Counted from the first letter of the stretch, positions 10,284 through 55,883 are shown. The stretch: DNA of 64,000 bases from Patescibacteria group bacterium (GCA_016860985.1 BOKM01000001.1:463462-527461), one strand, 5' to 3'. A program made the numbers and translations. The notes: generated by a model not told the origin, from the letters alone.

Positions 10284-10699
10284 TTGTTCAAAGTGGAGGT
10301 GAGGGGAATCGAACCCCTGTTCAGCTATTCTAAAAAAGAAGTTTCTCCCAAAACAGTCTGAGTTGTTTACGAGATTATGCCTAAAAATCAGACAAAAAAG
10401 CATAACCCGCCCACACAAATACGATTCTGGCAACTCAGCGGAACTAGCGGCCAGTCGGCATGAACTTTCTTACTCCTGGCTCTCCGCTTGTCATGCGAAG
10501 GAGGAAAAGCCAGTTACGTCGAAATTAGACGTATGAGAATTGCATTGCTGGAGAAACAGCTTTGAGGGCTGAGTTCACGAACGATGCGATTTTCTCAGAA
10601 AGGGTTTGTTTGGCACTTTATGTGCTTTGATAGTTTAACGGGATATCAGCCCGTTTGGCTACTTCTTTCAACGAACAACCGTCTAAACCGATCACCCCC
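10284..10699 (-). ncRNA. ssrA: tmRNA (ssrA), about 415 nt
   Basis: The minus-strand 5' end GGGGGUGAUCGGUUUAGACGG resembles the canonical tmRNA 5' end (GGGGCUGAUUCUGGAUUCGACGG). The 3' end ...CAGGGGUUCGAUUCCCCUCACCUCCA has a T-arm (GGUUCGAUUCC) and an acceptor strand that pairs with the 5' GGGGGUG. CCA is not encoded. Confidence 0.7.
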
Positions 10700-19900: not shown

Positions 19901-20000
19901 CCGACAAGCCAGTAAAAACAATCAACTTGTTTTTTGGGATATCGACGTCAATATTCTTGAGATTGTTCTCGCGCGCACCGCGAATCGAGAGAAAGTCCAT
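16998..20000 (-). CDS. uvrA: excinuclease ABC subunit A
   Basis: Two ABC ATPase modules with Walker A (GLSGSGKSS and GVSGSGKSS), LSGGE signatures, and zinc-finger Cys pairs. 1000 aa. Confidence 0.95.
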   Translation of the reverse strand: MDFLSIRGARENNLKNIDVDIPKNKLIVFTGLSGSGKSSLAMDTIYAEGQRKYVESLSAYARQFLGELRKPDVDKIEGLSPSIAIDQKTVSHNPRSTVGTITEIYDYLRLLYARVGVAHCPQCGAVLTSQTIDQVVDGLLQKIKREYENDKNTQKFGFRFMITAVPISGRKGEYEQVFMNLRKQGWNVVRVDGEYIDLKLMLPQLDKYKQHEIEVVVDTLSVSKTLFDSEEALKEMRSRIFQSVEAALKIQPTFVRILEIRDPQPGIPARPTSVLSHDYSVTKSCKKCGISVPDLEPRDFSFNSPHGACPECDGLGVIKKISTEGIIDGKRSILAGGIMPYAKMLERDSYFRRLLELVCDAHTISIHTPVSMLTEGKLHLILYGTGDQKYKVTYFSSQDGTERSLHAKYEGIIPNLERRYKETNSDFIRTEIEKFMSTVTCPTCKGTRLKDIVLAVTINNLNISQLCDLTIKEFTDETKGFIKEFDSKAQTIAQPVIREILLRSQFLLDVGLEYLTVSRTATTLSGGEAQRIRLASQIGTGLSGVIYVLDEPSIGLHARDQHRLIATLKHLRDLGNTVIVVEHDRDTMMNADLVLDFGKGAGDRGGKIVAMGTPKEIMDNPESVTGPYLAGKKTIAKEVEKLVKLGLGKNKKLNDALASHARMRVADRYLELSGAKTHNLKDVTVKFPLGKFVAITGVSGSGKSSLVVETLLPAIKKTLGLRTDSPDTEYRNLYVSDVIDKLLYIDQSPIGRTPRSNPATYTKVFDDIRELFAQTKDSKVRGYTASRFSFNLKGGRCEACKGEGKIKIEMQFMPDVYIDCDVCHGKRYVSEVLEVLYKGKNIADVLDMSVDEAAAFFSEISMIREKFEMLQQVGLGYLKLGEPAPMLSGGEAQRVKLSAELGRRSTGKTIYILDEPTTGLHFADIEKLVAVLKTLVATGNSVFVIEHNLDFIAEADYLIDLGPEGGTGGGEIVATGTIGDIRRNPRSWTGKMLKELDIAE

Positions 20001-29072: not shown

Positions 29073-30425
29073 ATGTCAAACTTATCAGTAGACGAGCGAA
29101 TTGCTCTCATAAAATCCATCACCGAAAATGGTGGAGAGTTCATCGGCGAAGATGAACTAGAAAAGGTCCTTACCTCTGGAGAGCAACTCTATACGTACGA
29201 TGGGTTCGAACCCTCTGGCCAAATGCATATTGCACAAGGAATTATCCGCGCAATTAACGTTAATAAGATGATTGACGCTGGCTTCACTTTTAGAATGTGG
29301 GTAGCTGACTGGTTCGGTTATTTGAATAACAAAATGGGCGGCGATTTAGAGAAAATAAAAACTGTTGGTCGCTATTTTGTTGAGATTTGGAAAGCAAGCG
29401 GCATGAATCTTGATAAAACAGAATTCCTTTGGACCTCAGATTTTGTTGGCCAGCGATGGTACTGGGAATTGGTTATGAAGATAGCCAAGGCAGTTACCCT
29501 CAAACGTGCGCTTAGAACAACTGCAATTATGGGGCGGACCGAAAGTGACGATCTTTCCGCTGGTCAAATCTTTTATCCGTGCATGCAAATTGCTGACATA
29601 TTCGGTGTTATGAATGCGCAAGTTACACAACTTGGGCTTGATCAGCAAAAAGTAAACGTTCTTGCTCGAGAAATAGGAGAAGAATTAGGTTACTGGAAAC
29701 CCGTAATTGTGAGCCATGGTATGTTGCAAGGATTGCAAAAGCCAGAAGACAAAAAACGAACAGTTATCTCAACCAACAATTTTATGGCTCAAGAACTGAT
29801 TTACAAAGGGAGTAAAGCTTCTATTGTAGTTCAAGGAAGAGAAGAAAACTGCATAACCCTCAGTTTTGTTAATACAAAACAAGACGTACTACGAACCGAA
29901 GATGTGTCCACAGAAAAAAGTATAAAGTACTTCGATTTGCAGATTACATTACACACCAATGGCGAGCTCGAAATACTCGAGAATACTCCAGAAAGAATGA
30001 TATCCATGAAGATGAGTAAATCAAAACCAGACACCGCCATCTTTATGACCGACACCTCAGAAGAAGTTCAGCGCAAAATTATGAAGGCATACTGTCCAGA
30101 AGGAATAATCGACGACAATCCCGTACTTGATTATTGCAAACAAATCATTTTTAACGCTCACTATCTAAAACGCGAAAATCCACTTCTGAAAGACGGGGTG
30201 TTCGAGATTAAGCGAAAACCAGAGTTCGGTGGAGATATCACCTTTGCATCGTATCAGGTACTTGAAAAAGCATATGCAGATAAACAAGTGTACCCACTTG
30301 ATCTAAAGAATACCGTTATTGAGTACTTGAATGCATTATTGCAACCAGTACGAGATCATTTTGAAAACAATGCCGAGGCAAAAGCACTTCTTGAACAGGT
30401 GCGTAGCTTTCAAGTATCACGCTAA
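29073..30425 (+). CDS. tyrS: tyrosyl-tRNA synthetase, archaeal/eukaryal type, with an insertion of about 85 aa before KMSKS
   Basis: GFEPSGQMHIAQG (HIGH-like) and KMSKS motifs. The C-terminal block KAYCPEGII..NP...IKRKPEFGGD...LDLKN aligns well with Methanocaldococcus TyrRS. Confidence 0.8.
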   Translation: MSNLSVDERIALIKSITENGGEFIGEDELEKVLTSGEQLYTYDGFEPSGQMHIAQGIIRAINVNKMIDAGFTFRMWVADWFGYLNNKMGGDLEKIKTVGRYFVEIWKASGMNLDKTEFLWTSDFVGQRWYWELVMKIAKAVTLKRALRTTAIMGRTESDDLSAGQIFYPCMQIADIFGVMNAQVTQLGLDQQKVNVLAREIGEELGYWKPVIVSHGMLQGLQKPEDKKRTVISTNNFMAQELIYKGSKASIVVQGREENCITLSFVNTKQDVLRTEDVSTEKSIKYFDLQITLHTNGELEILENTPERMISMKMSKSKPDTAIFMTDTSEEVQRKIMKAYCPEGIIDDNPVLDYCKQIIFNAHYLKRENPLLKDGVFEIKRKPEFGGDITFASYQVLEKAYADKQVYPLDLKNTVIEYLNALLQPVRDHFENNAEAKALLEQVRSFQVSR

Positions 30426-50852: not shown

Positions 50853-52655
50853 CTAGATTCCTTTTAACTCATCGACGGTTGTTGCCTGTTCCGCCTTCTT
50901 TTCCCTGAATTTTTTAAACCTTGGAAAGCGAAGTGCATAACCTGAAGAATGAAGGGGGCTTTTGGTTATTTCGTCTGCTTCGACTTCTACTACAAGCGAG
51001 GGCAATAAATAAACATCTGGAGTGAGCGACTTAGGAATAACTACATTATCCAGTTTTCTATCGGTCTTTACCTCGTCACAGGCTGCTTTAATGATTTTCC
51101 ATTGCTCGTGTGTAACCCCCGTGCCTATTTTTGTTACGGTTAGGTACTCATCTGTCTCTCGGTTATAAACAGCAGCAAGCAGTGCACCGATACCAAATTG
51201 GGCGAGTTTTCCTTCTCCGCGATAATAACCTACCAAAACGATATCAACCGTATCTGCGAGTTCTTTTTTCATCGCTTTTTTATATTTTAACCAATCAAAG
51301 TTACGCGTTCCTGGAGTATAAATAGATGACGTATCCTTAAAAATGACTCCCTCTAAACCCTCTGCCACATATTCAAGGAAAAGTTTTTCCGCCTCAGCAA
51401 CATCTTTTGGATAATGAATTGGAGTTTTAACAATTGTACGTTGAACCTCCTGATTTTCGTCGAGAAAAGTTAAGAGTTCTTTTCGAACTGAAAGTGATTT
51501 GTCCATCAAATTTTCATTATTTACCAAAAGAATATCAAAAGAGAAGACTTTAACAGGAACTTCGTTTGCTGCACCTTCTACCCCGTGTTTCCGCTTGCGA
51601 GTCATTGTTTGTTGGAAAGGAAGATACTCCTGAACGATATCATTGTAACCGATGACTTCACCATCGAGCACAATGGATTCAACAGAGACACCGTGCTTTT
51701 TTTCATACTGCAGTGGAAGCTTCTTTGCTGCTTCTACGACTTCGGGGAACATTTCGGTCATATTTTCGAGATTGCGGGAAAAAAGCATAACTGAGTAATC
51801 CTCTTTTTCATTCTGTTCTGGTTGAGAAAAAAGGCTAAGATTCGCTTCTTTTGACTTATCTTCGTGTGAAAAGTATGGTTGCCAAACTCTTTCTGCATAG
51901 ACGTTTTCAAGAACCTTTTCTTTGAATACGTGGAGTTGTATTCGCAAACCGTCATATTTTGGCTCTTCAATTGGCTCTGGAATTCTTTTGTAGATAGACT
52001 CGATTGAATCTTCACGTTCAACCAGCTTTGCTGAGACAGGAATTCCTGGTGAAAATACTGATCGTTCCGGGGCTGCTTCGCCATACTTTAGAGAGAGATA
52101 CACTGTATGCCCAATATCTGAACAATTCGCAAACAGCTTTTTTAGCTCGTCATTTTTTGTCCCCTGTAATGCGCCGAGTGCCTCAAGTATGGTTCTTTCG
52201 CTTGCTCCAAGCCGAAGTTTGCTGTTCACAATTCGCAGTGTATACTTGCCCGCTAGAGGTGAGCATCTTTTTAGCAGATTAATTAGTAATTCTTGTTTCT
52301 TTGCCTGTGAGCCTGTCCCTTTGGTTTTTGCAACATCCCACAAGAGAGAGTAGTAGTCGAGTAGGGTAAGGTCAGTCTCTTGTTTTGGTGCGTAGGCCTC
52401 CCATACTGAACCGATATCACCATATGTGGTTAAATCTTGCACAACATCTTTACCCAAGAGTGTTTCGACAACAGTTCGCAACGTTTTATCAGACAATTGA
52501 AACTCAACCGCAATAAATTCAGGGACAATTCTTCCTATTATCAAATATGCCGTAATTGCACCTTCTTCAGGGGTTGCCTGACGGAAATAATCAGTTAAAA
52601 GGGCCTGCATTTCGAGTCTTTTTGGTGTTTTCTCAATTGCCGAAAATAATTCCAT
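50853..52655 (-). CDS. ATP-dependent DNA ligase
   Basis: Adenylation motif I EPKYDGLR and an OB-fold domain. Start set at the internal MELFS. Confidence 0.8.
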   Translation of the reverse strand: MELFSAIEKTPKRLEMQALLTDYFRQATPEEGAITAYLIIGRIVPEFIAVEFQLSDKTLRTVVETLLGKDVVQDLTTYGDIGSVWEAYAPKQETDLTLLDYYSLLWDVAKTKGTGSQAKKQELLINLLKRCSPLAGKYTLRIVNSKLRLGASERTILEALGALQGTKNDELKKLFANCSDIGHTVYLSLKYGEAAPERSVFSPGIPVSAKLVEREDSIESIYKRIPEPIEEPKYDGLRIQLHVFKEKVLENVYAERVWQPYFSHEDKSKEANLSLFSQPEQNEKEDYSVMLFSRNLENMTEMFPEVVEAAKKLPLQYEKKHGVSVESIVLDGEVIGYNDIVQEYLPFQQTMTRKRKHGVEGAANEVPVKVFSFDILLVNNENLMDKSLSVRKELLTFLDENQEVQRTIVKTPIHYPKDVAEAEKLFLEYVAEGLEGVIFKDTSSIYTPGTRNFDWLKYKKAMKKELADTVDIVLVGYYRGEGKLAQFGIGALLAAVYNRETDEYLTVTKIGTGVTHEQWKIIKAACDEVKTDRKLDNVVIPKSLTPDVYLLPSLVVEVEADEITKSPLHSSGYALRFPRFKKFREKKAEQATTVDELKGI

Positions 52656-52789
52656 TACTGTTGTCAGTTGCATACAGGATTGTACCACTAGCAGCCGAAA
52701 TTGCCGTAGTATTTTACTTACACACTGCCACGTTATATAATTACTCAGTACGCATTGACCCAGCAATCACTGGTGAGCGTCAGGAAGAA

Positions 52790-52946
52790 ATGCACATTAG
52801 CATTGTAGAACCTGTCGGCGACCTCCGAACCAACTGGTTAAGCCATTTAGGCTAAGGGATACAAAAACGTATCTGAACGAGGGTGGTACCGTGAGCTAAA
52901 TCACTCACCCCTCTATAGGGATTTGCATTAATTTACTATAGAGGCC
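52790..52946 (+). promoter_or_regulatory. T-box leader controlling ileS, with a sequestrator hairpin that includes the Shine-Dalgarno
   Basis: Conserved T-box antiterminator GAGGGUGGUACCGUGAG...CUCACCCCUC at 52879-52913. A mutually exclusive 9 bp perfect hairpin CCUCUAUAG/CUAUAGAGG at 52910-52944 overlaps the AGAGG SD just before the ATG at 52947. Confidence 0.6.
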
Positions 52947-55883
52947 ATGGCACACAACGAATTTACACTCCCGAATGTCCGCAATTTTTACACTGACGTC
53001 GAACAACCTATTCTATCGTTTTGGAAAGAGAACAAAATCTTCGAAAAATCAGTAGATCAGCGCAGTGACAAGGATCGATTTGTATTCTACGACGGTCCTC
53101 CCTTTGTTACTGGTTTACCCCATTATGGGCACTTGCTTGCGAGCGTACTCAAAGACATCGTCCCTCGTTACCAAACAATGAAAGGCAAGAAAGTCGAGAG
53201 ACTCTGGGGTTGGGATTGTCACGGCATTCCAATTGAAGAGATGGTCGAAAGAAAATACAAAACAAAGAACCGAAGAGAAATCGAATCACGGGTTGGCATC
53301 AAAGAGTTTATAGAAGCCTGTGCGTCATATGTCACCGATGTTTCGGGAGAATGGGAGTGGTATATCGACAGAATCGCGCGCTGGGTCGATATGAAAAAAC
53401 CATACAGAACAATGGACCTTTCCTACATGGAAACAGTGATGTGGGTGTTTAAGCAATTCTACGAAAAAGGGTTAGTCTATAAAGGAAAACGCGTTTCTTT
53501 GTACTGCACCCGCTGTGGTACGCCTCTCTCAAACTTTGAAATCGCTATGGACAACTCGTACCGAGACCTTGAAGATCCTTCAGTATTTGTGAAATTCCCC
53601 GTCAAAGATGAAAAGAATACCTACATACTCGCATGGACAACAACACCATGGACTCTTCCGGCAAACAGTGCGTTGGTAGTTAATCAAGAGGCAGATTATG
53701 TAAAAGTAAAATCCGGCACCGATTCTATGTACCTTGCAAAAGCTCTCGTAGAAAAAGTCTTTAAAGATTTAGAATACACGGTAGAAGACGAAGTAAAAGG
53801 AGCAGCATTGATTGGGCTACATTACGAACCATTATTCAACTACTTTACTGCAGGGGAGCATGATTATCAGGTTTATCACGCAGATTTTGTCAGCATGGAA
53901 GAAGGTACAGGAATAATCCACATGGCTCCTGGATTTGGTGAGGACGACACTGCGCTCGGAAAGCAAATCGGGTTATCCATGCACGAAACAATCGACGACG
54001 AAGGAAGGCTTATACCCGAAGTTACTGATTATGCAGGCAAGTACTTTAAAGAAGCCGATCCATTTATCTCCGAAGACTTAACAAAGCGAGGTCTTATGCT
54101 AAAAGCGGAGCGAATCGTTCACAGTTATCCTATCTGTCACCGATGCAAAACACCTCTTGTTTATAAAGCACAGGACTCTTGGTATGTGAATATCCAGCAA
54201 ATTAAGGACCAACTCTACAAAAACAACGAAAATATCAACTGGATTCCAGAACATATCAAACACGGAAGATTTGAAGATGCGATTAAAACCTTCCCAGATT
54301 GGGGTATTTCAAGAACTCGTTATTGGGCAACTCCGATGCCAATTTGGGAATGTGACTCCTGTGACCACCAGGAAGTGTTAGGCTCAGTAGCAGAAATTGA
54401 AGAGCGATCAGGCAAAAAAGTTACAGACCTTCATCGTCCATACATAGATGAGCATACGTACGCTTGTAAAAAGTGTGAGAAAGGAACAATGAAGCGTGTC
54501 GCAGAGGTTGTTGATAGCTGGTTGGAATCAGCCTCCATGCCGTTTGCGCAATTCCACTATCCCTTTGAAAACAAAGAAAAGTTTGAAGCCAACTTCCCCG
54601 GTGATTTTATTACCGAATACGTGGGGCAAACGAGAGCTTGGTTTAACGTGATGCACGTGGTTTCAACTATACTTTTCGGTACAAATGCCTTCAACAATGT
54701 AATCTGCACAGGCGTTATCAAAGGAACCGATGGCCAAAAAATGAGTAAAAGCCTTGGCAACTACCCAGACCCTCGAGGTGTTATCGAAAAATACGGTGGC
54801 GACGCATTCAGACTCTATATTGCAGGAAGCGTATTACCATTAGGTGAGGACTTGAACGTTTCTGAAGAATCAATATCTGCCCCCGGAAAAGAGATTCTCA
54901 TGCCACTAATGAATACATACAAGTACTTTGCGTTATACGCCAATCAACATACCTTTGCTTTTGACCAAAATGCAAAATCGGAGCATGTACTCGATAGGTG
55001 GATTCTTGCACGTGTTAATTCTGTTGTTAGAACAATAGATTCAATGATTGCCGGATATACACTTCCAAAGGCAATTGCAGAGATTAAGCCCCTTGTAGAC
55101 GACATTTCCACTTGGTACATCCGAAGATCCCGAGATCGTTTTGTTGAGGGTGATAACAATGCATTGCAAACGTTATATCAAGTACTTCTTCTTGTGGTTA
55201 CCGCAATAGCACCAATCTCACCGTTTATAGCAGAGTATCTTTACCAAGAGTTAAAACGTGCGTTACCTACAGACCTTCAACAGGAATCAGTGCACCTACT
55301 CCTTTTCCCGTCACTTGCAGAGCAAACTGCAGAAGAACAATCAGTCCTAGCAACAATGGAACTTGCACGAAAGGCTGCATCGCTTGGGCAAAGTATTCGA
55401 GTAGAAAAAGCAATTGCACTCAAACAACCGCTTAGCCAAATGTTAGTTAATACAAAGGAGAAGCTCACAGCAGAATACCTAGACCTTTTATCAGAAGAGC
55501 TTAATGTTCAGGAGACACTCGCCGTGACCGAATTAACAGAAAAAGAGTTTTTGGCGGTTAAGAAAGATCAAGGAATAGAAGTCGGCTTAAATCTCGAAAT
55601 TACACCAGAACTTGCAGAAAAAGGGTTACTTCGCGAAGTGACAAGAGCGATCCAAGCCTCAAGAAAGAATGCTTCTCTCCAAATCGGGCAACATGCAAAG
55701 GTGCGAATTTTCACAGAAAGTACCGCAATCAAGGAACTTGTTGCAAAATACGGCACAGAGCTAAAGCAGGGAACACTCCTCGAAAGCATCGATACCGTTC
55801 AGCAACCACTTGGTGAAAACGCATTTACAGCAGCTGTAGGGCCACAGAAAGAGCAATTATCCATTGAAGTCACGCCACTTTAG
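52947..55883 (+). CDS. ileS: isoleucyl-tRNA synthetase
   Basis: HYGH and KMSKS class I motifs, a CP1 editing domain. 978 aa. Confidence 0.95.
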   Translation: MAHNEFTLPNVRNFYTDVEQPILSFWKENKIFEKSVDQRSDKDRFVFYDGPPFVTGLPHYGHLLASVLKDIVPRYQTMKGKKVERLWGWDCHGIPIEEMVERKYKTKNRREIESRVGIKEFIEACASYVTDVSGEWEWYIDRIARWVDMKKPYRTMDLSYMETVMWVFKQFYEKGLVYKGKRVSLYCTRCGTPLSNFEIAMDNSYRDLEDPSVFVKFPVKDEKNTYILAWTTTPWTLPANSALVVNQEADYVKVKSGTDSMYLAKALVEKVFKDLEYTVEDEVKGAALIGLHYEPLFNYFTAGEHDYQVYHADFVSMEEGTGIIHMAPGFGEDDTALGKQIGLSMHETIDDEGRLIPEVTDYAGKYFKEADPFISEDLTKRGLMLKAERIVHSYPICHRCKTPLVYKAQDSWYVNIQQIKDQLYKNNENINWIPEHIKHGRFEDAIKTFPDWGISRTRYWATPMPIWECDSCDHQEVLGSVAEIEERSGKKVTDLHRPYIDEHTYACKKCEKGTMKRVAEVVDSWLESASMPFAQFHYPFENKEKFEANFPGDFITEYVGQTRAWFNVMHVVSTILFGTNAFNNVICTGVIKGTDGQKMSKSLGNYPDPRGVIEKYGGDAFRLYIAGSVLPLGEDLNVSEESISAPGKEILMPLMNTYKYFALYANQHTFAFDQNAKSEHVLDRWILARVNSVVRTIDSMIAGYTLPKAIAEIKPLVDDISTWYIRRSRDRFVEGDNNALQTLYQVLLLVVTAIAPISPFIAEYLYQELKRALPTDLQQESVHLLLFPSLAEQTAEEQSVLATMELARKAASLGQSIRVEKAIALKQPLSQMLVNTKEKLTAEYLDLLSEELNVQETLAVTELTEKEFLAVKKDQGIEVGLNLEITPELAEKGLLREVTRAIQASRKNASLQIGQHAKVRIFTESTAIKELVAKYGTELKQGTLLESIDTVQQPLGENAFTAAVGPQKEQLSIEVTPL

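Follow-up and report, generated by a model that had tools for sequence, protein, structure and literature searches.

The ileS gene of a Patescibacteria group bacterium is preceded by a leader of about 200 nt, and this locus raises the questions of whether the leader is a tRNA-sensing riboswitch and of whether it acts on transcription or on translation. The leader lies within a stretch of 64,000 nucleotides that was analysed as a whole (hereafter the window). A preliminary description of positions 52790-52946 had proposed a T-box that controls ileS by hiding its Shine-Dalgarno (SD) sequence. The analysis presented here indicates that 52748-52946 is the 5' leader of ileS and a genuine T-box riboswitch of tRNA-Ile type, which most probably exerts its control at translation and not at transcription termination.

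The gene itself (52947-55883, + strand) encodes an isoleucyl-tRNA synthetase (IleRS) of 978 amino acids with the Pfam domains tRNA-synt_1 and Anticodon_1 and with HIGH and KMSKS motifs, so the T-box does lie directly 5' of ileS, as had been proposed. Divergent from it is a gene for a three-domain, archaeal/eukaryotic-type ATP-dependent DNA ligase of 606 amino acids (50853-52673, - strand), with a TACAAT box placed 5 nt upstream of the ATG. All close relatives retain the synteny of ligase and ileS, and the contigs of the closest IleRS proteins share with the window the gene order undecaprenyl-diphosphate synthase, an ATP-dependent DNA ligase read from the opposite strand, ileS, a TrmB-like methyltransferase, a class-V aminotransferase and SNase. 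Among named relatives, the best matches of the IleRS are metagenome-assembled genomes of the candidate phyla radiation (CPR), and the closest named relatives of both IleRS and UvrB are labelled Saccharibacteria, Dojkabacteria or Patescibacteria, with the UvrB of the window sharing 71% identity with a Dojkabacteria-labelled protein. These relatives bear out the earlier impression of a CPR-like genome and place it probably near the Dojkabacteria-labelled group. Many IleRS proteins of a sister clade (P0008-P0014 and P0016-P0025; for example L089:3001-6375 and L001:4001-7399) are about 1120-1170 amino acids long and have a NUDIX domain (PF00293) inside or fused.

The covariance-model search suggested in the preliminary description was carried out with Rfam. 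In E-value mode, the T-box family RF00230 matched 52746-52915 from model end to model end with 37 bits and E-values of 8.1e-7 over 401 nt and 1.3e-4 over the whole window, both strands and all families. The match is thus significant, but its score falls under the gathering score of 93 for this family. The low score is explained by the alignment, in which 74 model positions of distal Stem I are missing and only 4 nt stand in their place. Since 37 bits are below the gathering score, a default Rfam scan misses the T-box and reports only a tmRNA in the window. This tmRNA gene (10291-10699, - strand; 92 bits) has a large insertion relative to the model, and ARAGORN called neither a tmRNA nor a tRNA in the 64-kb window.

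Five orthologous leaders (L081/L083, L082, L084, L085 and L089) align with that of the window throughout the element and at the TATAAT of its promoter. They precede IleRS genes whose products share 67-87% identity with the window's protein (67% for L089, an IleRS with a NUDIX domain) and retain the synteny of ligase and ileS; the closest of these proteins (74-87% identical) come from metagenome assemblies. Alignment of the six distinct leaders, including that of the window, with MAFFT under a hand-drawn structure gave 93% of cells paired and 12 pairs with double-sided changes, compared with at most 5 in slid controls, and the pseudoknot is among the supported elements. A covariance model (R1) built from these six leaders was used to search 80 species-representative CPR loci gathered by IleRS similarity. 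It identified 32 further matches (E<0.01), all on the + strand and upstream of ileS, most of them within about 250 nt of the gene and eight at 390-1220 nt upstream. By their labels, the loci with R1 matches belong to Saccharibacteria, Dojkabacteria, Moraniibacteriota, Pacebacteria, Magasanikbacteria and the Patescibacteria group.

When metagenomes were scanned for the Stem I pattern GACCCAGCNATCACTGG, 80 loci were obtained, with T-boxes only in L095 and L126; the other 78 lack a T-box motif downstream of the match and were attributed to chance. Matches to RF00230 below the gathering score (38-49 bits) were found in L095, L044, L082 and L084. In an alignment of 40 sequences, 91% of cells are paired, with double-sided changes in 423 cells (slid controls, at most 74) and a covariation score of 0.664 (slid controls, at most 0.112); this alignment is model-fitted and biased toward R1 by construction, but the margin is large and the MAFFT alignment of six leaders concurs.

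The leader (about 52748-52946, + strand) comprises, from 5' to 3', a promoter, Stem I, Stem II with its S-turn, the IIA/B pseudoknot, a linker hairpin, Stem III, the antisequestrator and the sequestrator. An unconstrained fold gives Stem I, Stem II, both small hairpins, Stem III and the sequestrator. The promoter-like sequence TTTACT-17 nt-TATAAT (52713-52741, + strand; 10/12 matches) has its -10 hexamer at 52736-52741, and each of the five orthologous leaders has a TATAAT in this place. The T-box begins 6-10 nt 3' of this hexamer, with its 5' end near 52748-52752, and not at 52790 as previously given, a start that leaves Stem I and half of Stem II outside the element. A leader peptide or upstream ORF was also considered and set aside, as the 5' end of the leaders has no conserved AUG.

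Stem I (52752-52778, + strand) is ultrashort, in agreement with the short Stem I noted earlier and with the published descriptions of actinobacterial ileS leaders. It is made up of two basal pairs (G52752-C52778 and C52753-G52777), a GA motif resembling a K-turn and a stem of 4 bp (CCAG/CUGG) capped by a 6-nt apical loop, CAAUCA. The K-turn-like motif consists of an AUU bulge and of G52757 and A52758 opposite G52775 and A52776, and reads UGA...GAG (52756-52758 and 52775-52777). The basal G-C pair is replaced by A-U in three of the six leaders, and all four pairs of the 4-bp stem covary in the 40-sequence alignment. The apical loop carries the predicted specifier, the isoleucine codon AUC (52766-52768), which is followed by a conserved purine, A (together 52766-52769, + strand). 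AUC-A is invariant in all six clade leaders, whose loops read C-N-A-U-C-A with A, U or G at position 2, and AUC followed by A is present in 32 of the 40 listed loop strings of CPR T-boxes. The triplet UCA is as conserved in this loop as AUC, and AUC was taken as the specifier because the regulated gene is ileS. The specifier of the Mycobacterium tuberculosis (Mtb) ileS T-box is also AUC with a purine next to it (PMC11297988, PMC7583486). The two specifier candidates put forward previously are not sustained: no AUC occurs around 52812, and the one at 52871 belongs to the 3' strand of Stem III.

Stem II (52780-52815, + strand) has a lower helix, 52780-52784/52811-52815, and an upper helix, 52789-52793/52800-52804, separated by an S-turn-like internal loop with AAGAA (52785-52789) opposite GUAGAA (52805-52810), which fits the Rfam consensus GAA...AGUA. 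The lower helix shows double-sided changes in four of its five pairs among the six leaders and in all five among the 40 sequences, while the upper helix is weakly supported, with 58-64% of cells paired. In Stem IIA (52816-52827, + strand), C52816-G52818 pair with C52825-G52827, and an F-box-like CCGAA follows. Its loop, A52821-U52824, pairs with U52835-U52838 to form the IIA/B pseudoknot (52816-52838 including Stem IIA), which covaries from ACCU/AGGU to GUCU/AGAC and GCCU/AGGC; in the six leaders, both sides change in two of its four pairs, and 96% of its cells are paired.

Between the pseudoknot and Stem III is an extra linker hairpin, AGCC-AUUUA-GGCU (52841-52853, + strand), which the Rfam alignment reads as an insertion and which is followed by the conserved UAAGGGAU. 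Two of its four pairs covary in the clade, and all four covary CPR-wide where the hairpin is present (94% paired). Stem III, GAUAC-AAAAAC-GUAUC (52858-52873, + strand), occupies the Rfam Stem III positions and covaries in two of five pairs within the clade and in five of five CPR-wide. The leader therefore contains the S-turn of Stem II, the IIA/B pseudoknot and Stem III, all of which characterize T-boxes.

The antisequestrator, or discriminator (52879-52913, + strand), consists of two helices and a 7-nt bulge, and contains every piece of the antiterminator named in the preliminary description. Helix A1 pairs GAGGG (52879-52883) with CCCUC (52909-52913), the T-box bulge UGGUACC occupies 52884-52890, and helix A2 pairs GUGAG (52891-52895) with CUCAC (52904-52908), all on the + strand. 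The 14-nt T-box sequence, AGGGUGGUACCGUG (52880-52893), matches the consensus AGGGUGGNACCGCG at 13 of 14 positions, and its single departure, C to U, preserves the pairing of A2. Within the clade, A1 is invariant and A2 has one compensatory pair, whereas CPR-wide (40 sequences) four of five A1 pairs and all five A2 pairs covary, with 95-99% paired; the bulge UGGUACC is found in 31 of the 40 T-boxes. The bulge UGGU implies an A73 discriminator on the predicted partner tRNA-Ile, and ARAGORN found no tRNA gene in the 64-kb window and no tRNA-Ile in 44 related loci. In three Saccharibacteria-labelled T-boxes (L013, L027 and L040), UGGA takes the place of UGGU, which would imply U73 on their tRNA-Ile or a mispair.

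The window-wide Rfam match and the compensatory changes in orthologous leaders support the earlier assignment to the T-box family. They also bear on whether the sequence might be a decaying or chance T-box-like element with no regulatory role left. Such decay could be read from the Rfam score under the gathering value and from three close relatives, L001, L087 and L088 (IleRS 64%, 60% and 59% identical), in which no T-box was found. However, every module is conserved with compensatory changes, although the IleRS proteins behind these leaders are only 67-87% identical; the 14-nt T-box sequence, the specifier and the sequestrator are all intact; and model R1 scores 162-179 bits inside the clade and 19-84 bits across CPR. 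We consider decay or chance resemblance very improbable. In the three leaderless relatives, 5-6 nt separate a TATAAT-like box from the ileS ATG (L001:3960-4003, L087:1560-1580 and L088:2985-3003), and apparently the T-box has been lost there and ileS is transcribed without a leader.

The structure that competes with the antisequestrator is a hairpin at 52910-52944 (+ strand), the sequestrator, in which CCUCUAUAG (52910-52918) pairs in full with CUAUAGAGG (52936-52944), giving the perfect 9-bp helix reported previously and an inner AU-rich extension. Its 3' arm stops 2 nt before the ATG at 52947. Eight of the nine pairs are kept in all six leaders; the outermost C-G pair occurs only in the window, L084 and L089 have a G.G mismatch, and the one compensatory change is U-A to A-U in L089. 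The helix is mostly invariant, 80 of 500 shuffles attained its score, and the support for a sequestrator hairpin comes mainly from conservation.

The sequestrator and A1 both use C52910-C52913, an overlap of 4 nt, and therefore cannot both form in full. The mutual exclusivity expected from the preliminary description thus holds for these shared nucleotides but is partial, extending to four of the nine hairpin pairs, and folding energy also yields a shifted pairing of the T-box region that is compatible with 8 bp of the hairpin. The four pairs are exactly those covering GAGG: formation of A1 takes these four G/C-containing pairs from the hairpin and leaves five A/U-rich ones. ViennaRNA evaluated the antisequestrator at -12.1 kcal/mol and the sequestrator together with A2 at -17.3 kcal/mol. 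In the absence of tRNA, the OFF state is thus favoured over the ON state by about 5 kcal/mol and is expected to be the default, as in other T-boxes.

No U-tract is present 3' of the hairpin, and no terminator-like site was called within 52500-53100, so that the structure is not a U-tailed terminator, as had been recognized before. In the six clade leaders, U runs between the T-box and the AUG reach at most 2-3 nt. In contrast, the other 33 T-boxes (the 32 CPR genome loci and L126) have a run of 4-8 U shortly after the T-box, and terminator sites were called over the T-box 3' end in L036 and L010 and not in the window. Five loci combine an ultrashort Stem I with a strong hairpin and a U-tract (L036:3716-3922, L010:2284-2445, L044:486-700, L126:473-650 and L095:1-225 on the - strand), and their T-boxes look like transcriptional terminators. 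In many Saccharibacteria leaders, AGGAG occurs as a separate motif 5-8 nt from the AUG. At some loci (L080:3822-3986, L022, L052, L061, L047, L038, L057, L006, L070, L077 and L012), 160-1220 nt and apparently another ORF separate the T-box from ileS, and the T-box may control a small operon there.

Because termination is the common state of the family (hairpin and U-tract in 33 of 33 other T-boxes found), the hairpin of the window, which is likewise built from the 3' strand of A1, might be a U-tract-independent or factor-dependent terminator of a transcriptional T-box like those of its CPR relatives. This appears quite unlikely, since no U run longer than 3 follows the T-box in any of the six clade leaders, no terminator-like site was called, and the sequence 3' of the hairpin is A-rich coding sequence. 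In addition, all six leaders keep a distance of 2-4 nt from the hairpin to the AUG despite a variable loop length, a pattern expected of start-site masking and not of termination. With a hairpin that has no U-tract and ends 2 nt before the ATG, as opposed to the U-tracts of the 33 other T-boxes, control at the level of translation is the best reading for this clade. The clade of the window would accordingly be an exception in a mostly terminator-type family, with an expression platform that looks translational.

What the hairpin would mask is a separate matter. The preliminary description had it occlude an SD sequence, AGAGG, 3 nt before the ATG. This motif is found in the 3' arm at 52940-52944, and its distance to the ATG is 2 nt; functional SD sequences usually lie about 5-9 nt from the start. 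All five orthologous leaders carry AGAGA or GUGAGA instead, so AGAGG is confined to the window. Among 54 genes of the window, defined as non-overlapping ORFs of at least 150 codons, only two (one of them ileS) have an SD-like motif (GGAG, GAGG or AGGA within 20 nt of the start), compared with 11.8% of random 20-mers from the window; SD usage is essentially missing from these gene starts. In 24 of the 54 genes, a TANNNT hexamer ends 5-9 nt before the ATG, a placement of TANNNT or TATAAT boxes that implies pervasive leaderless mRNAs in this genome. Examples of such gene-start sites are 19986-20000 (-), 30411-30425 (+) and 52679-52684 (-), and operon-internal genes mostly overlap or adjoin the preceding stop codon.

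In its strict form, the SD proposal states that AGAGG at 52940-52944 is the functional SD of ileS and that the riboswitch keeps it from the anti-SD of the 16S rRNA, exactly in the manner of actinobacterial ileS leaders. The position of AGAGG inside the 3' arm fits this proposal, as do the presence of ileS among only two genes with an SD-like motif, the possible need for an SD where a gene has a long leader and its neighbours have none, and the fact that the pairs freed by the antisequestrator are exactly those over GAGG. We nevertheless regard it as unlikely, given the AGAGA or GUGAGA of the orthologues, the pairing of the outermost G in the window only, the 2-nt spacing and the rarity of SD-like motifs at gene starts. 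The purine run is, moreover, dictated by its pairing, because the 3' arm must complement CCUCU of the T-box 3' strand.

Occlusion of an SD by the hairpin is thus doubtful, and from the earlier claim of a translational T-box hiding an SD we retain the translational part, which agrees with a hairpin abutting the start in six of six leaders. In view of the weak support for an SD, the proposed mechanism is better described as one that masks the site where ribosomes load at the start codon. One observation counts against this explanation as well, namely that ribosomes would have to initiate behind a leader of about 200 nt, in a genome with 24 apparently leaderless genes and two SD-like starts among 54. 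A -10-like TACTAT (52934-52939, + strand), 7 nt before the ATG in the region of the hairpin 3' arm, resembles the -10 boxes of leaderless genes. Its use as a bypass promoter for a leaderless ileS was considered and set aside; it occurs in only three of the six leaders, is forced by the hairpin sequence and is probably coincidental.

Based on these features, we infer that the leader binds tRNA-Ile, responds to its charging and is read out at translation, in the following manner. The GAU anticodon of the tRNA would read the AUC specifier in the apical loop of Stem I, assisted by the S-turn of Stem II and the IIA/B pseudoknot, as in the ileS T-boxes of Mycobacterium and Nocardia. If the tRNA is uncharged, its 3' ACCA end would pair with UGGU of the bulge and stabilize the antisequestrator (52879-52913). 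This would remove C52910-C52913 from the hairpin and make the AU-rich 52914-52946 single-stranded, so that ribosomes could load at the AUG at 52947. With charged tRNA-Ile, the more stable hairpin (52910-52944) would form against the start codon and block initiation. The masked part would then be the ribosome-loading region next to the AUG and not necessarily a functional SD.

T-boxes are known mainly from Firmicutes and Actinobacteria, with some from Chloroflexi and Deinococcus-Thermus, and translational T-boxes with an ultrashort Stem I have been described mostly from Actinobacteria (PMC7583486; TBDB). The class II search of TBDB covered only Actinobacteria and class I hits with a truncated Stem I (10.1101/2020.06.17.157016), and regulation in CPR has been called virtually unknown (PMC11665869). 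In the full-text literature, which leaves subscription journals and database contents outside its scope, no T-box has been linked to Patescibacteria, Saccharibacteria or the candidate phyla radiation, and none of the full-text papers combining riboswitches with CPR describes native T-boxes. T-boxes in CPR therefore appear not to have been described previously. A scan at the Rfam gathering score overlooks such T-boxes, as the five that are detected at all (the window and four related leaders) score 37-49 bits against 93.

We tentatively propose that a phylum-wide family of ileS T-boxes, so far undescribed, exists in CPR, with an ultrashort, platform-less Stem I and mostly U-tract terminators, and that in the lineage of the window, with its mostly leaderless mRNAs and unused SD, it was converted to an SD-independent mask of the start codon; we hold this broader proposal to be about as open to error as to confirmation, with a slight lean toward error. 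If it is true, the occurrence of a short Stem I with terminators would contradict the view that transcriptional T-boxes need a long Stem I to capture tRNA fast enough. The leader of the window would in itself be a native, sequence-readable switch reporting the charging of isoleucine tRNA in organisms that rely on hosts for amino acids. A minimal decoding module coupled to both terminator and start-site platforms would also make the CPR set a natural experiment on the kinetic role of the long Stem I. Published phylogenies place CPR within Terrabacteria. A T-box common to CPR, Firmicutes, Actinobacteria and Chloroflexi is consistent with that placement.

The ileS T-boxes of other CPR bacteria (for example, L044 labelled Dojkabacteria, L036 and L062 labelled Saccharibacteria and L070 labelled Moraniibacteriota) have the same ultrashort Stem I with an NNAUCA loop. 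They also share with the window the S-turn, Stem IIA, in many cases the linker hairpin, the bulge UGGUACC and the location upstream of ileS. They differ in the expression platform, which is a hairpin followed by 4-8 U, whereas the clade of the window has no U-tract and a hairpin abutting the AUG. Transcriptional T-boxes generally need a long Stem I with an elbow-binding motif (PMC7583486), and the CPR leaders with an ultrashort Stem I and clear terminators (L036, L010, L044, L126 and L095, among others) depart from this generalization.

With the canonical transcriptional T-boxes (RF00230; for example, tyrS and glyQS of Bacillus subtilis), the window shares the 14-nt T-box sequence, a UGGN bulge for NCCA, helices A1 and A2, the basal K-turn of Stem I, the S-turn of Stem II, the IIA/B pseudoknot with an F-box-like sequence, Stem III and an expression platform with two mutually exclusive states. 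It differs from them in the absence of a U-tract terminator and in a match of 37 bits against the gathering score of 93.

Sherwood, Grundy and Henkin reportedly described translational ileS T-box riboswitches of Actinobacteria in 2015. The class II ileS T-boxes of Mycobacterium tuberculosis, M. smegmatis and Nocardia farcinica, known also from the structures 6UFG and 6UFM (PMC7583486), resemble the leader of the window in the ileS target and in an AUC specifier followed by a purine. In both, Stem I is ultrashort, lacks the platform that binds the tRNA elbow and holds the specifier in its apical loop, and both contain a Stem II that bears an S-turn, the IIA/B pseudoknot, Stem III and a discriminator with a 7-nt bulge. 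The alternative hairpin adjoins the start codon in both and is not a U-tailed terminator, a combination that agrees with the definition of class II T-boxes (PMC7583486 and the TBDB methods, 10.1101/2020.06.17.157016). The likeness to actinobacterial leaders was established from their published descriptions (PMC7583486, PMC11297988). In size, the window's element, which spans about 162 nt if measured from Stem I through the antisequestrator, compares with nucleotides 1-166 of the Mtb leader (PMC11297988). The leader of the window differs in its host, which belongs to CPR/Patescibacteria and not to Actinobacteria, and in the extra covarying hairpin of its linker (52841-52853), whereas the Mtb linker has 14 nt, at positions 79-92 (PMC11297988). 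Unlike in the actinobacterial leaders, the purine run masked by its hairpin is not a conserved SD and is found in a genome seemingly without SD use.
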